Shown here piece after piece: positions 56,225 through 64,000 of a stretch of DNA of 64,000 nucleotides (position 1 is its first letter; each line of letters starts with the position of its first letter). The stretch covers positions 362,781 through 426,780 of the forward strand of contig OZ257254.1 of NCBI GenBank assembly GCA_965279645.1. The letters are read 5' to 3'. The position numbers and the translations under genes were made by a program. This stretch comes from Rhodoglobus sp. Its GTDB lineage: Bacteria; Actinomycetota; Actinomycetes; Actinomycetales; Microbacteriaceae. The notes under the pieces are model-generated. The model saw nothing but the letters and a program-made list of their open reading frames with translations. It did not search any database and had not been told where the DNA came from.

Positions 56225-56692
56225 TCAGTCGCGAGGAAGGCGCGGTACTCGCTCGGCGAGATCGTGGATGTTGTCGGAAGTTGACTCGAGATACTGCGTT
56301 ATCGCCGCAGTGTGATCCCCGCCGGGCAAGGCGGCGCTGAGCGCTTCGTAGTAGTGGCTGATCACCCAGGCCATCGTCTCGCGGCCTGCGTCGGTGAGGT
56401 CGACCACGACGCTGCGGCGGTCGACGCTGCTCTGTTCGCGCGCCACGAGGTTGTTGAGCACGAGCTTGTCGATGGTCGCGGTCATGCTTCCCGACGTGAT
56501 GCTTGCCGCGGCGGCGAGTGCCCCGGCGGTTGACGGGCCCTCGCGGTTGAGGATGCTGATCGTCTTGAGCCCAGTGACGCCGATGCCGAGGCGCTCGCCC
56601 ATAGCGGAGCGCGCATCATCCATCGTGAGTATGAGGCGGAACATTGCGCCGGCAAGCCCGGCGAAGCCGTCATCTGCGGAAGTGTGTGGCAT
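56225..56692 (-). CDS. MarR-family transcriptional regulator
   Basis: TAGALAAAASITSGSMTATIDKL and DRRSVVVDLTDAG. Confidence 0.88.
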   Translation of the reverse strand: MPHTSADDGFAGLAGAMFRLILTMDDARSAMGERLGIGVTGLKTISILNREGPSTAGALAAAASITSGSMTATIDKLVLNNLVAREQSSVDRRSVVVDLTDAGRETMAWVISHYYEALSAALPGGDHTAAITQYLESTSDNIHDLAERVPRLPRD

Positions 56693-56758
56693 GTTTCCCC
56701 GTCTGGCACCTCGCGGTGCGTTCCCCGCCATCCACACTACAGAGAGATGTGCGTATTT

Positions 56759-57388
56759 CTATGCGTTTGCAATGAACGATGCGACGGCCGAGGCCGCCTC
56801 AGCGAGGTTCTGCTCGTTGGTTCTTCCACTGATCTTTACACGGGGTTTGAAGCCGTGCTCCCCGTCTTCGAGCCAGTGCAGCTCGATGGCGGGGGAGAGC
56901 CCGTAGCCGGGAACTTCCTCGATCGTGCCGAACTGGTCGCGCGTGCCCTGGCATATGAGGGTCGCGGTCTTCAGGGTGAGCAGGTGCGCGGTGCGCAGCG
57001 CGTCGGGCGTGCCCGGCGGGTGGAACGGATAGCCGAGGCACACCAGGCCCGCGATCGTGCCAGCCTCGAACAGCTCGTCGGCGACCATGCTTGCGACGCG
57101 CCCACCCATCGACTTGCCGCCGATGAACAGCCGCTGCGCGCCCACCGTGGCAACGGCGTCACGAAATTCGCCCACGAGCGTTTCGGCGCGGGGCGGCGGC
57201 TTGCGCAGGCCCTGCCGGCGAGCGGCCATGTAGGCGAACTCGAACCGGGCCACCCGAATACCGTGACCCGCGAGTCGCTCGGCAAAGTCGGTCATCCAGC
57301 CGTTCTCCATGCCGGCGCCGGCGCCGTGAGCGAAGAGAAATGTGGCGCTGTAGCTGTCGGGGGTGTTCCAGAGAATCTCGGTTGCCAT
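56759..57388 (-). CDS. Alpha/beta hydrolase-fold protein
   Basis: AHGAGAGM, GGKSMGGR, LGYPFHPPG, QGTRDQFG, DGEH. Confidence 0.9.
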   Translation of the reverse strand: MATEILWNTPDSYSATFLFAHGAGAGMENGWMTDFAERLAGHGIRVARFEFAYMAARRQGLRKPPPRAETLVGEFRDAVATVGAQRLFIGGKSMGGRVASMVADELFEAGTIAGLVCLGYPFHPPGTPDALRTAHLLTLKTATLICQGTRDQFGTIEEVPGYGLSPAIELHWLEDGEHGFKPRVKISGRTNEQNLAEAASAVASFIANA

Positions 57389-57433
57389 GAGGTGATGCTA
57401 CGGCCAGCCCGGCAGCAGCCGTAGGCTCGACGG

Positions 57434-59174: not shown

Positions 59175-59238
59175 TCAGGCGGGCTGGTTTCTCAGGCCGC
59201 AAATCCTCAGAAAGCCACCACGGCTAGGATTGAAGGCG

Positions 59239-60714
59239 ATGTCAGCCCCATTTTCTACCGCAACCGGAACCGACGTTCGCGTTCGTTTCTGCCCCTCGCC
59301 GACCGGTACGCCGCACGTCGGTCTCATCCGCACAGCCCTGTTCAACTGGGCGTACGCGCGCCACACCGGCGGCAAGCTTATCTTCCGAATCGAAGACACC
59401 GACGCGGAGCGCGACAGCGAGGAGAGCTACCTGCAACTGCTCGACGCGTTGCGCTGGCTCAACATTGACTGGGACGAGGGAATCGACGTCGGCGGCCCGC
59501 AGGCGCCGTACCGCCAGTCGCAGCGCACCGACATCTACCTCGGTGTGATCGAGCAGCTCAAGGCGGCCGGTCACCTGTACGAGTCGTACGCGACGGGCGA
59601 AGAGATCGAGGCCCGCAACGTGGCCAACGGCCGCGACCCCAAACAGGGTTACGACAACTTCGAGCGCGACCTCACCGATGCCGAGCGGGAGGCGTTCCGC
59701 GCCGAGGGGCGCCAGCCCGCCCTGCGTTTGCGGGTGCCCGACACCGACCTCAGCTTCGACGACCTCGTGCGCGGCGAGATCACCTTCCCGCAGGGATCAT
59801 TCACCGACTTCGTCGTCGTTCGGCCCAATGGCGCTCCGCTGTACACGTTCGTCAACCCCGTGGATGACGCGCTCATGGGCGTCACGCACGTGCTGCGCGG
59901 TGAAGACCTGCTCTCGTCGACTCCCCGGCAGATTGCGCTGTACACCGCGCTCATCGAGATCGGTCTCACCGACTTCATCCCTCGCTTCGGCCACCTGCCC
60001 TATGTGATGGGGGAGGGCAACAAGAAGCTCTCGAAGCGCGACCCTGAATCGAACCTCTTCCACCACCGCGACCGCGGGTTCATTCCCGAAGGCCTCGTCA
60101 ACTACCTGTCGCTGCTGGGCTGGTCGCTCTCGGGTGATCGAGACGTGTTCTCGATCAACGAGATGGTCGCGGCATTCGACGTTGTGGATGTCAACCCCAA
60201 CCCCGCGCGTTTCGACGTGAAGAAGGCCGAGTCGATCAACGGCGACCACATTCGCCTGCTCTCGACGGAGGAATTCGCCAACCGTTTGCTGCCCTACCTC
60301 GGTGATCTCATTCGCACCGAGGCCGACCGCGAGGTGCTGCTGTCGGCCGCGCCCCTCGTGCAGGAGCGCATGCAGTTGCTCGGCGAGGCACCGGGCCTGC
60401 TTGCGTTCCTGTTCACCGCCGACGACGACCTCGTGTTTGAGGCGGATGCCCTGCCCGGTGCCGAGGGCCCCGAGGTGCTCGACGCTGCGCTCGCCGTGCT
60501 GCCGGGCATCCCGGAGTGGACCCACGATGCCATCGAGGCTGCGCTGCGCGCCGAACTTATCGACGTGAAGCAGCTCAAACCGCGCCTGGCCTTCGGGCCC
60601 CTGCGCAGCGCCATCTCGGGGCGCCGCATTAGCCCGCCGCTCTTCGAGTCGATGCAGATTCTCGGTCGCGAGTCGTCGCTCGCTCGGATCGCGAGGCTTC
60701 GGGCGCAGCTGTGA
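59239..60714 (+). CDS. gltX: Glutamate--tRNA ligase
   Basis: [13 protein letters not shown] (HIGH-like), RIEDTD, RGEDL, KKLSKR (KMSKS-like). Confidence 0.97.
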
Positions 60715-61622
60715 GCGACTGGGATGTCGTGATTGTCGGCGGTGGACCCGCCGGCCTGAGTGCCGCCCTCAACCTCGCGAGAGCTCGGCGTCGGGTGCTC
60801 GTGCTCGACAGCAACCGTCCGCGCAACTCGGCGACCTTCCGGTCGCACGGGTTTCTCAGCCGTGATGGCATCTCGCCGCTCGAACTGCGCCGTCTCGGTC
60901 GCGAGGAACTCGAGGCGTATCCGAACGCATCATTCGAGAAGACCGTGGTGAAGCGGGTCGAGCCGACCTCGCGGGTCGAGCCTGGCGAGACCACCCCCAC
61001 CGGTTTCATCGTCGACGACAAGTACACCACCACGACCTTCGTTGTCGCCACGGGACTGCGCGAGCAGCAACCACCACTACCGAGCCTGCGCGCGTTCTAC
61101 GGCACGAGCATCCATTCGTGCATGGAGTGCGACGGCTACGAATACAGCGACAAGCCCATCGCTCTCATCGGCGAATCGGGCGACCTCGCCGACCGCGCCC
61201 TGCTGCTGTCGCAGTGGAGTCGCGACCTCATCGTGTTCACCAACGGCGTCGGTGTCGTGACCGACGAGCAGGAGGCGAATCTGGGCACGCTGGGTATTCG
61301 CGTTGACCGTCGACCCGTGGCGGATGTCGCGGGCGATCGCGATGGAGTCACCGGTGTCACGCTTGCCGACGGTGAGACGGTGCCGCGCGTGGGCATCTTC
61401 GTGCGCCCCATCTACACGCCTGCGCTCGATTACGTCGAACCGCTCGGTCTGGCCCGAGACGCCGACGACCTGATCGTGGTCGACGACGTGGGCCGCACGA
61501 GCGTGCCCGGCGCCTACGCAATCGGCGACTGCACTCCTCCTGGCCCCCAGCAACTCATTGTTGCCGCCGGACAGGGCGGCCGCGTTGCTGCTGCCATCAA
61601 CAGGGATCTTCTGCACTCATGA
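60711..61622 (+). CDS. NAD(P)/FAD-dependent oxidoreductase (thioredoxin-reductase-like)
   Basis: [23 protein letters not shown] (CxxC), [11 protein letters not shown]. Confidence 0.92.
60971..60992 (+). repeat. Family B REP copy inside the oxidoreductase (in frame, RVEPGET)
   Basis: gcgggtcgagcctggcgagacc, 20/22 identical to both 26852 and 27944. Confidence 0.8.
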
Positions 61623-62296
61623 CCGTCAAGAAGCGACCGTGGTGGAAGGGCTGGATTCCGGCCGCTGGCCTCGTCGTGATTCTCGTGGGCGTGGGCATCG
61701 CAACCTCCGTCATGATCAACAACGGTCTCGGCCAGCCCGCACCCAAGCCCACCGAGGGGCAGGTCACCGACCTCAACTGGTCGAGTTTCAGCGAAGACGG
61801 CTTGGATTACATTGCCCGCACCCGCCAGGTGCGCATCGACATGTCGACCCAGCCCGTGGATGCTGCGGCCATTGGCCTGGCCCCTGACGACACCCTCGTG
61901 CTGGAGCGCATAGACACGGGTGACACCCTGCTCGACTACGACCTCATCATCAATGGGGGAGGGGAGGGTTTTGGTGGTGGCCGATTCGTGGTCACCGACA
62001 TCACCATCGTGACGCAGAGCGGTGTCGTGACGAGCGTGAGCGCGCCCCTGCGCGACGTCGTCAACTTTCGCCAGACGCTCGACATGCTGACCGAGAAGGC
62101 AGAGATCTGGGGGTGGGATACGGCCGCCCGCGACGAGGCCTTCGCGATCGCCGACCAGGCGACCCGCGACGGCGTGCCCTACGAGTTCACGTTTGGCCCG
62201 GCAGACAAGGCGGGAGTACCGATGGCGGCGACCGCGAGCTGCGACACGAGCGGCTTCTGCGTCGTTACCTACACGGCCACTCCCGCGACAGAATAG
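61619..62296 (+). CDS. Hypothetical membrane-anchored extracytoplasmic protein
   Basis: KKRPWWK followed by one TM and an acidic beta-rich domain ending in a C..C pair; ATGA-coupled. Confidence 0.7.
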   Translation: MTVKKRPWWKGWIPAAGLVVILVGVGIATSVMINNGLGQPAPKPTEGQVTDLNWSSFSEDGLDYIARTRQVRIDMSTQPVDAAAIGLAPDDTLVLERIDTGDTLLDYDLIINGGGEGFGGGRFVVTDITIVTQSGVVTSVSAPLRDVVNFRQTLDMLTEKAEIWGWDTAARDEAFAIADQATRDGVPYEFTFGPADKAGVPMAATASCDTSGFCVVTYTATPATE

Positions 62297-62300
62297 TCAG

Positions 62301-62792
62301 ATGCAGATCAGGCCGGCCACCGAGAACGACCTCGACGAGATTCTCGAGATTCACAACACGGCCGTTCGTGATTCGCTCGCAATCTGGACCGAGACCGAAG
62401 AGACTCGCGCCGATCGTGCGGCGTGGCTTGCGGCTCACCAAGAGGCGGGCGAGCCGGTGCTCATCGCCGACGTCGACGGGCGGGTTGCGGGGTACGCGAC
62501 GTACGGTCGATTCCGCCCGAAGACGGGCTATCGCTACTCCGTCGAGAACTCCGTTTATGTGCACACTGACTTTCACCGGCAGGGGATCGGTCGGATGCTC
62601 ATGGTCGAGCTCATCGCCCAGGCTCGGGCAGCGGGCATCCATGTGATGGTGGCGGGAATCGAGGCGGGCAACTCTGCGTCGATCGAGCTGCACCGAAAGC
62701 TGGGATTTGAGGAACCTGTCGTGGTGCGCGAGGTGGGCACGAAATTTGGCCAATGGCTCGACCTCGCGTTCATGCGTTTGCCCCTCGATTGA
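62301..62792 (+). CDS. GNAT N-acetyltransferase (phosphinothricin/methionine sulfone acetyltransferase-like)
   Basis: IRPATEND, VENSVYV..FHRQGIG, NSASIELH, VGTKFGQWLD. Confidence 0.92.
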   Translation: MQIRPATENDLDEILEIHNTAVRDSLAIWTETEETRADRAAWLAAHQEAGEPVLIADVDGRVAGYATYGRFRPKTGYRYSVENSVYVHTDFHRQGIGRMLMVELIAQARAAGIHVMVAGIEAGNSASIELHRKLGFEEPVVVREVGTKFGQWLDLAFMRLPLD

Positions 62793-62834
62793 TACGCTAA
62801 AGTAGACAGTCGGCCCGCTTAGGCGGAACCGCAT

Positions 62835-62906
62835 TGGGGTATGGTGTAATTGGCAACACGGAAGATTCTGATTCTTTTGTTCTTGGTTCGAGTCCAGGTA
62901 CCCCAG
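62835..62906 (+). tRNA. tRNA-Gln (anticodon CTG), no encoded CCA
   Basis: Acceptor TGGGGTA/TACCCCA, D-arm GGTGTAATTGGCAACAC, anticodon loop TTCTGAT, T-loop GGTTCGAGTCC. Confidence 0.97.
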
Positions 62907-64000
62907 CTTTTGTAAGCTTGCTCAAACCGTTAGCAAGAAGAACCGAATGGTCAACATCAGTTTCCCCAGCACCCAGGTCGCTTCCGCGCGTCGGGTTTTT
63001 GGTTTGCTGGCCCGGTCGCACAATGGCGAGCCATTCCGATTGCCGCCGGCCGCGGTTCAGTTTGAGGTGGCACATCCACGTTGAGCCAGATTCGACGGAG
63101 AACCTGCCAAAGGAATCCACGACGCGACGAATCTGTCGTGTGCTTGAAAATGCTCAGATGGTTGGAAGAGGAGGCCTAGATACGCCGGCACTCGTCTGCA
63201 CGACGAAGTCGTCACTCCAGTCCAACAGAAGACTAAGTTCTCCATGGTGGGACCGAAACCGCTGGTACTTGGTCGCCGCAGACCCTCGTACACCGTCTAG
63301 AGTCAGTTCGGTAGTCCGTTGAGTTGAATTCCAGTGTTACCGAGTGGGGGCACCTGTGTCCGTTGAACTGACACCCGCGCACCAGCTTGCATCAGTTTTT
63401 AGCACACGGGTGTTTCGTGCTCTCGCGAGCGAGCGTATCGAAGTTCTCGCGCGACGTCTCGCGCCGCTGCTTTCTGTTGAGACGGTGCCCGATACGCCCG
63501 TTGCTCAGCTTTTTGATCTGGCGCACGCACGACTACTTCGCGAGTATCGGTCGGAGTACCTGTATAAGAACACCCTAGTTTCTAAGATCGTGTTCGGCAG
63601 GCATCGTCCGTCCACCGCCTCCGCACTTCTTGAGCAGCCAATGGGGGAATCCGAAGCCGATGTGTTGGTTTTAAATGGGACATCTACTGTCTACGAGATT
63701 AAGACCGACCTAGATCAGTTTTCACGTCTTAGCGGGCAGATTGCGGACTATTGCAGCCGCGCAGAGAGAGTGTACGTCGTAACATCCGAGCGGCGATCAG
63801 CGGCCGTCGAGGCGCGGGTTCCGGACCATGTGGGAGTCATCGCGCTCCGCCGGAGCGGTGTCCTGACTACGATCCGCGAGTCGGAGTCCAACCTTTCGCG
63901 TCTGAATGGACACCACTTATACCGTCTCCTGCGACGCGACGAAGCCTTAGCTCTCATGGGGGAGACAATTGGCTACTCGGCTGATGTCGCGAGAGGTGAC
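62907..64000. mobile_element. Left edge of a putative genomic island downstream of tRNA-Gln
   Basis: Abrupt GC drop (hand counts 29/60 at 63541-63600 and 24/60 at 63661-63720, versus 45/60 at 59701-59760) and many A/T-ending codons. No integrase or att repeat is visible in the window. Confidence 0.65.
63356..64000 (+). CDS. sce7726-like PD-(D/E)xK nuclease-fold protein, 3'-partial
   Basis: Manual translation from GTG 63356 is open to the window end (215 codons): MSVELTPAHQLASVFSTRVFRALA...YRSEYLYKN...FGRH...EADVLVLNGTSTVYEIKTDLDQFSRLSGQ..DY...VYVV. Confidence 0.82.
   Translation, partial: MSVELTPAHQLASVFSTRVFRALASERIEVLARRLAPLLSVETVPDTPVAQLFDLAHARLLREYRSEYLYKNTLVSKIVFGRHRPSTASALLEQPMGESEADVLVLNGTSTVYEIKTDLDQFSRLSGQIADYCSRAERVYVVTSERRSAAVEARVPDHVGVIALRRSGVLTTIRESESNLSRLNGHHLYRLLRRDEALALMGETIGYSADVARGD

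Follow-up and report, generated by a model that had tools for sequence, protein, structure and literature searches.

A presumed sce7726–sce7725 gene pair beside a tRNA-Gln gene: a probable Gop-less relative of the gop-beta-cII anti-phage system

Introduction

The window analysed here, by which we mean the whole stretch of 64,000 nucleotides from a Rhodoglobus sp. contig, ends in a reading frame that opens shortly after a tRNA-Gln gene and runs off the edge. This poses the question of whether the frame belongs to a real gene and, if so, whether that gene is part of a conflict system directed against phages. An earlier note on this DNA had read it as a hidden gene of the sce7726 family with a PD-(D/E)xK nuclease core, opening an island and paired with a sce7725 or Beta-like protein just beyond the edge, and had compared the pair with the gop and beta genes of the phage-satellite P4. 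Here, we follow these claims from the reality of the gene, through its family, fold, genomic setting and partner, to the function that might be ascribed to the pair.

A genuine gene truncated by the window edge

The frame begins at GTG 63356 on the forward strand and, as inspection of the open reading frames confirms, remains uninterrupted for 215 codons up to the window edge at 64000. The closest in-frame stop upstream of this start lies at 63320–63322, just two in-frame starts, GTG 63344 and GTG 63356, precede the conserved part of the protein, and a GGGGG stretch is found 6–10 nt ahead of the latter. Among 2000 shuffles of positions 62909–64000, 19 contain a frame that stays open for 215 codons or more; hence, the size of the frame alone is weak evidence for a gene. 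The case for a real gene is instead made by homology (an E-value of 2.6e-38 on the NCBIfam model NF033832 and hundreds of homologues) and by the signature of selection: in comparison with a 73%-identical relative, the nucleotide differences are distributed as 52, 25 and 141 over codon positions 1, 2 and 3, respectively, with dN at 0.19 and dS saturated.

Further, a 291-aa product starting at exactly GTG 63356 (P0001) is recorded at NCBI and ENA. It aligns end to end with its homologues, lacks the early stop that the earlier note had named as a possible outcome and extends 76 codons past the window, which by codon count places the stop at about 64229–64231, outside the window. On these sequence comparisons, we take 63356..64000 (+) to be the first 215 codons of a genuine, 291-codon gene evolving under purifying selection. 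This gene is hidden in so far as it is absent from the supplied track of reading frames, probably owing to its truncation at the window edge, but its product was already on the public record.

The sce7726 family and its conserved motifs

The 215-aa fragment by itself scores 131.8 bits on NF033832, the model of the sce7726 family, against a curated cutoff of 70 bits, which bears out the proposed family membership. The full-length product, at 291 aa and free of premature stops, has the architecture of a complete sce7726 protein (~260–300 aa). Likewise, PF26915 (Phage_P4_cII) is precomputed on P0001 and on all 120 homologues listed, and the PADLOC model PDLC02989 (‘cll’) matches the window protein with 57 bits (E ~6e-16 to 1e-15). 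The full-length protein returned zero matches in the copy of Pfam that we scanned because PF26915 is absent from that copy. For the window fragment, the sole Pfam match, to MEDS (12.4 bits as against a threshold of 29.8), was dismissed as noise.

All the motifs that had been read from the letters were found, and they correspond to conserved columns of the family: YRSEYLYKN occupies residues 64–72, GRH residues 81–83, and the glutamate of the next motif is E93, followed by A101-D102 and, 11 residues after D102, by E114-I115-K116, with S123-R124-L125, Q128 and D131-Y132 downstream. In an alignment of 27 homologues, A101, D102, E114, K116, D120, R124, L125, Q128 and Y132 are invariant, and Y64, E67, Y68, K71, N72, H83 and E93 are at least 90% conserved. 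The YRSEYLYKN motif (63545..63571, +), placed by the alignment and the structural model described below, lies ahead of the nuclease core, at the end of a helix spanning residues 49–63 and the start of one spanning residues 67–82. The predicted catalytic segment, D102 with E114-x-K116 (63659..63703, +), is conserved in P4 cII as well as in the 27 homologues, and falls on strands of the model.

The family is large: we recovered 5,188 clusters at 50% identity with E <= 1e-3, of which 940 have E <= 1e-30, at least 569 places among species-representative genomes, and 92 viral contigs of IMG/VR. The nearest named homologues come from Curtobacterium, Microbacterium, Conyzicola and Subtercola, a Microbacteriaceae-like clade, and the best match on the contigs of the species-representative genomes is 51% identical to the window protein. 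Two Burkholderia proteins (P0093 and P0094) with ordinary sce7726-family alignments carry the NCBI name ‘glutamyl-tRNA synthetase’, evidently a misannotation; a genuine gltX lies at 59230–60714, 2.6 kb upstream of the sce7726 gene of the window.

A predicted PD-(D/E)xK nuclease fold

An AlphaFold2 model built with the 27-homologue alignment (pLDDT 94.6, pTM 0.91) displays a core in the order helix-strand-strand-strand-helix-strand, formed by the helix 67–82, the strands 89–96, 99–106 and 110–116, the helix 125–133 and the strand 138–144, and flanked by helical N- and C-terminal regions. D102 is situated on the second core strand (99–106), and E114 and K116 on the third (110–116). Foldseek searches against the PDB recovered 3dnx as the top match (E 5e-4), followed by AF1548 (1y88), NucS/EndoMS (2vld), SfsA (4dap) and McrC (6ut7). 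The coverage of these matches is low, as expected in the divergent PD-(D/E)xK superfamily.

The core fold and the placement of the catalytic triad are common to the sce7726 protein and to the MmcB-like, NucS and SfsA nucleases of the PD-(D/E)xK superfamily. In contrast, there is no detectable sequence similarity to these in Pfam, the TM-scores are low (0.2–0.3 of the query) and helical domains at the N and C termini come in addition to the shared core. The earlier assignment to PD-(D/E)xK is thereby borne out, in fold and in motif, by the model, the Foldseek matches and the invariance of D102, E114 and K116, with nuclease activity as the prediction that follows from the model. A catalytically intact core is likewise predicted, as one part of the overall explanation that we consider probable below.

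The gene opens an apparently acquired island next to tRNA-Gln

The gene is preceded by a tRNA-Gln with the anticodon CTG at 62835..62907 (+), detected by ARAGORN and by Rfam RF00005 (57.9 bits), which marks the border between a housekeeping block and low-GC DNA. The upstream block encodes a class IV aminotransferase, an FAA hydrolase, GltX, an oxidoreductase and a GNAT acetyltransferase, and its GC fraction of ~0.64–0.68 drops to ~0.55–0.58 from the tRNA onward; similarly, GC3 is 0.60 in the sce7726 gene versus 0.85 in gltX. Thus, the tRNA-Gln and the drop in GC fit acquired DNA inserted at or next to a tRNA. The composition of the sequence is in keeping with the sce7726 gene lying on a horizontally acquired island directly downstream of tRNA-Gln, which agrees with the earlier view that the gene opens an island.

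Between the two lies a low-GC spacer of 448 nt (62908..63355), holding only short ORFs and part of a 162-aa ORF that overlaps the tRNA. A scan of 62000–64000 found no sigma-70-like promoter and no intrinsic terminator in the spacer, and Rfam returned no match on 62000–64000 besides the tRNA, with none in the spacer at E <= 0.1. The 162-aa ORF, called mechanically at 62834–63322 (+), begins one base before the tRNA-Gln and spans all of it and most of the spacer; it is almost certainly not a gene. Two other ORFs on the forward strand of the housekeeping block, 56684–57424 (246 aa) and 61619–62296 (225 aa), have no Pfam match at E <= 0.001, and the latter runs into the mechanically called start of the GNAT ORF.

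In public runs with the locus, among which no RNA runs were identified, the assembly breaks at the 3′ end of tRNA-Gln (window positions 62878–62907). The contig that bears sce7726 in these runs is 4,172 nt long with a depth of 7.4–18.9, begins at the tRNA 3′ end and reaches ~3 kb past the window. Low-depth contigs (depth 2–3) have just those 30 nt in common with it, followed by unrelated sequence, and probably derive from the tRNA-Gln of other organisms, the sample being mixed, and not from an unoccupied attachment site.

The presumed sce7725 partner

The usual pairing of sce7726 with sce7725, named in the earlier note, is seen in relatives. In a survey set of 81 loci (80 from species-representative genomes and L001), sce7725 adjoins sce7726 in 71; six of the other 10 lack downstream sequence and were excluded, making this 71 of the 75 loci with enough sequence, with an orphan sce7726 in the remaining four. 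The genes are co-directional in 69 of the 71 pairs and are separated by -228 to +87 nt, apart from a single gap of 862 nt. In two loci, sce7725 is convergent with sce7726 (L007:10930-11898(-) and L061:10837-11799(-)), the orientation of beta and cII in P4. Among the viral contigs of IMG/VR, sce7725 is present in the fetched locus of 59 of 79 cII-like genes and is adjacent in nearly all of those listed.

For the source genome, a 312-aa sce7725 homologue is on record (P0126), 63% identical to the sce7725 protein of a relative (168 bits on NF033831). The only contig of P0126 is 3,076,311 bp in length, as is the only contig of P0001. In the close relative L083 (73% identity), sce7725 starts 51 nt after sce7726, and in L001 (66% identity) it does so after 53 nt in the called genes (NF033831 168 bits). 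From the P0126 record, the closest relatives and the wider survey, we infer a well-supported partner adjacent to the sce7726 gene in the source genome, starting ~50 nt after its stop, near 64280. The sce7726-to-sce7725 arrangement thus presumed for the window is that of the 69 co-directional pairs. The window gene is an ordinary member of a widespread pair already named by NCBI (NF033832/NF033831), to which it belongs directly and from which nothing structural sets it apart.

The link to P4 runs through cII

The earlier note had connected the locus to P4 by way of Beta. The connection to P4 stands, but its strongest route is cII, which had been missed: P4 cII (NP_042034) is annotated in RefSeq as a sce7726-family protein, scores 151 bits on NF033832 and 376 bits on the PADLOC ‘cll’ model, and is aligned by hhalign with the profile of the window family at 98.6% probability (E 1.3e-15), an alignment in which the catalytic residues are retained. 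Judged by these comparisons, the most direct link to P4 is cII, itself of the sce7726 family, and not Beta.

In P4, gop-beta-cII confers on E. coli protection from lambda and P1; the satellite can dispense with this region, which occupies a hotspot where defence systems are exchanged (PMC9122126). Cell killing by gop-beta-cII is triggered by the phage accessory gene orf184 (bioRxiv 10.1101/2023.04.06.535777). Within the module, gop is described as the toxin and beta as its antidote by Ghisotti 1990, as cited in PMC9122126. The literature that we searched holds no account of the role of cII within gop-beta-cII, and no functional study or experiment on sce7726, sce7725 or the pair.

The two systems share several features: P4 cII and the window protein both exceed the NF033832 cutoff, possess the D...ExK and D-x3-RL-x2-Q motifs and reside on acquired or mobile DNA, and their respective partners, P4 Beta and sce7725, are proteins of ~310–355 aa with an N-terminal Y-x-P-x-L-R-x-R-x-x-E motif. 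They also differ in several respects: P4 cII and the window protein are only ~26–29% identical; P4 has the Gop toxin, whereas the sce-type loci are without it; the sce-type partner is sce7725 and not a bona fide Beta_protein as in P4; the sce-type genes are co-directional, whereas beta and cII of P4 are convergent; and the window host is an actinobacterium-like high-GC genome as against an enterobacterial satellite. A phmmer search with P4 Gop recovered no homologue in the 81 related loci, and there is no gop-like ORF upstream within the window. Hence, the toxin–antitoxin logic of gop and beta, on which the earlier analogy leaned, has its basis in the P4 literature but is not simply transferable to the present pair. 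PADLOC v2, for its part, matches solely the ‘cll’ component in the window protein, i.e., an incomplete gop_beta_cll system. Viewed as a system, the pair is best described from its sequences as a putative variant of gop-beta-cII that lacks Gop, is co-directional and has a divergent partner resembling Beta.

Is sce7725 a Beta-like protein?

The earlier description of sce7725 as Beta-like holds in part. On the Pfam Beta_protein model (PF14350), P0126 attains 15.8 bits over residues 2–84, below the cutoff of 27, and nine of 28 sce7725 proteins match this family weakly, more than match any other Pfam family; the PADLOC ‘beta’ model has no match to sce7725. A comparison of the sce7725 alignment with that of the Beta family by hhalign yields 84% probability (E 7.6e-6) over the N-terminal third (129 columns), a value reached only with the Beta-family profile, since the single P4 Beta sequence attains 5% against the sce7725 profile. 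Both families possess the motif Y-x-P-x-L-R-x-R-x-x-E...L...I-x-P, and the sce7725 HMM yields weak alignments of Beta proteins, the register of which never changes. Residues that are invariant in sce7725 include E34, N61, H224, K295 and H302. Taken together, these comparisons lend moderate support to sce7725 being a probable remote homologue of P4 Beta.

The model of sce7725 (pLDDT 88.6) displays alternating strands and helices in a TIM-barrel-like arrangement. Its PDB fold matches are weak (E >= 2e-3, TM ~0.35–0.4) and spread over unrelated TIM-barrel enzymes, and P4 Beta is not among its top 50 fold matches in BFVD. The single strong BFVD match is an uncharacterised 379-aa protein of Gordonia phage Powerball (A0A5J6TRS2; E 4.9e-10, TM 0.64), which indicates that an actinophage encodes a protein of the sce7725 fold; going by the model, this could be a homologue or a decoy of sce7725.

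Gene context lends independent support to the relationship. In the Pseudomonas and Methylibium loci, genuine Beta always occurs with a cII homologue, which is convergent, and is flanked by a small gene of the size of gop as well. As Beta thus neighbours a cII homologue, and sce7725 lies beside sce7726, the constant core appears to consist of a cII-like protein together with either Beta or sce7725.

Third genes and conflict-system neighbourhoods

Only three families recur among the 81 loci, namely sce7726, sce7725 and RES. The last is a protein of ~340 aa combining RES and HEPN_RES_NTD1, encoded downstream of sce7725 in 23 loci (L018, L020, L022 and 20 others, e.g., L018:11676-12731), mostly non-actinobacterial; its gene overlaps or abuts sce7725, i.e., it is translationally coupled. 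By analogy, this third gene suggests a slot for swappable toxins comparable to that of Gop. The RES domain along with HEPN_RES_NTD1 is common to these loci and to Xre-RES or other RES-toxin systems, whereas the actinobacterial clade nearest to the window lacks RES. There, a PIN_12 protein of 338 aa is encoded ~250–310 nt downstream of the pair in L001 and L090 (L001:12181-13197 and L090:8852-9868); this might be either a third component specific to the clade or merely a defence gene nearby.

Beyond PIN_12, the clade nearest to the window is not uniform downstream of the pair. L083 has a MazG-like fragment and a GIY-YIG/helicase downstream, and L089 has DUF3644 and MTaX1 plus a DNA methylase; HipBA (in L089) or HEPN genes are found upstream in two relatives of the nearest clade, and PRTase-CE/HD is also among the defence or toxin–antitoxin neighbours. 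Going by the domains that they encode, these surroundings can be regarded as conflict-system neighbourhoods.

A proposed function and its alternatives

We propose that the sce7726–sce7725 pair is probably a Gop-less relative of the gop-beta-cII anti-phage system residing on acquired DNA. Our confidence in its components differs: it is high for the identity of sce7726 and the operon structure, moderate for a defence role of the pair, which is argued by analogy, and low for the assignment of sensor and effector roles. The anti-phage or toxin–antitoxin function is thus one deduced from homology and neighbourhood, on which the defence reading rests. The following mechanism may be envisaged. The two genes would form an operon with sce7726 first and sce7725 second, whose TIM-barrel-like sce7725 product, the probable remote homologue of Beta, would restrain or sense. 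A phage-encoded trigger would then release the effector activity. In the two-gene versions, the cII-like nuclease would be the only predicted effector, cutting DNA and aborting infection, whereas other lineages would add a separate toxin, such as Gop in P4, RES in the 23 loci and perhaps PIN_12 among the closest relatives.

A wider reading, which we advance tentatively, is that a cII-like nuclease and a Beta-like TIM-barrel protein constitute an ancient, self-sufficient two-gene anti-phage core supplemented by interchangeable, lineage-specific toxins (Gop, RES and perhaps PIN_12). It would cover the more than 5,000 clusters at 50% identity found across bacteria, some archaea and proviruses, and, if true, the Gop-less pair would be functional in defence yet escape the present defence-finding tools.

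The alternative that fares best is that the pair is an addiction module of the island, with a toxic nuclease neutralised by the other protein, such that loss of the island kills the cell and phage defence does not enter. Such a module would sit well with a tightly coupled sce7726 and sce7725 on acquired DNA at a tRNA and with the toxin–antitoxin neighbours of a relative (HipBA in L089). However, the proteins are large (291 and 312 aa) with many invariant polar residues, which suggests two enzymes rather than a partnership with a small labile antitoxin, and the only experimental data on the homologous system concern phage protection and phage-triggered death. We consider it unlikely, while noting that addiction and defence are not mutually exclusive. 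Separately, a classical type II toxin–antitoxin system was considered and rejected in view of the sizes of 291 and 312 aa, the enzyme-like conservation and the lack of any detected HTH, RHH or AbrB domain.

Alternatively, the nuclease might act on the DNA of the mobile element itself, in recombination, replication or lysogeny control. This would agree with the name that P4 cII was historically given and its position adjoining int, with the presence of the family in predicted proviral contigs, where the match is often within ~2 kb of the contig end, and with the PD-(D/E)xK fold being found also in recombination and repair nucleases such as NucS and SfsA. Yet gop-beta-cII is dispensable to P4 and lies where defence systems are swapped (PMC9122126), and the contexts of the 81 loci are varied, with no conserved integrase or replication neighbour; on balance, we hold such a role to be very unlikely. 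Finally, a DNA-repair pair of an MmcB-like nuclease and a TIM-barrel endonuclease of the UVDE/Endo IV type is highly improbable: while 3dnx is the best PDB fold match of sce7726 and the weak matches of sce7725 include UVDE (3tc3, 4gle) and xylose-isomerase-like TIM barrels, all the latter are of the feeble kind noted above and scattered over many unrelated barrels, and a patchy, island- and virus-borne distribution with toxin-type third genes is unlike that of housekeeping repair.

Returning to the pair as a Gop-less relative of gop-beta-cII, the survey suggests that the core of a cII-like nuclease and a Beta-like protein is constant and that the toxin can be swapped. If so, sce7726–sce7725 would offer a simpler, two-gene model for the mechanism of gop-beta-cII and notably for the role of cII in it, and would add a defence system that is not called by PADLOC v2. 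In the source genome, the tRNA-Gln site would mark where an acquired island, probably related to defence, begins.

Two observations concern Beta itself. Three Pseudomonas aeruginosa loci (L084–L086) present the canonical module of a gop-sized gene followed by Beta and a convergent cII, in the neighbourhood of filamentous-phage-like genes (Phage_Coat_B, DUF2523 and DUF5447) and of a HigB-like toxin with an HTH gene. Further, P4 Beta (L082:651-1718) also matches the PADLOC PD-Lambda-2_C models with 49.5 and 31.9 bits, implying that Beta-family proteins are part of at least one other described defence system of E. coli.
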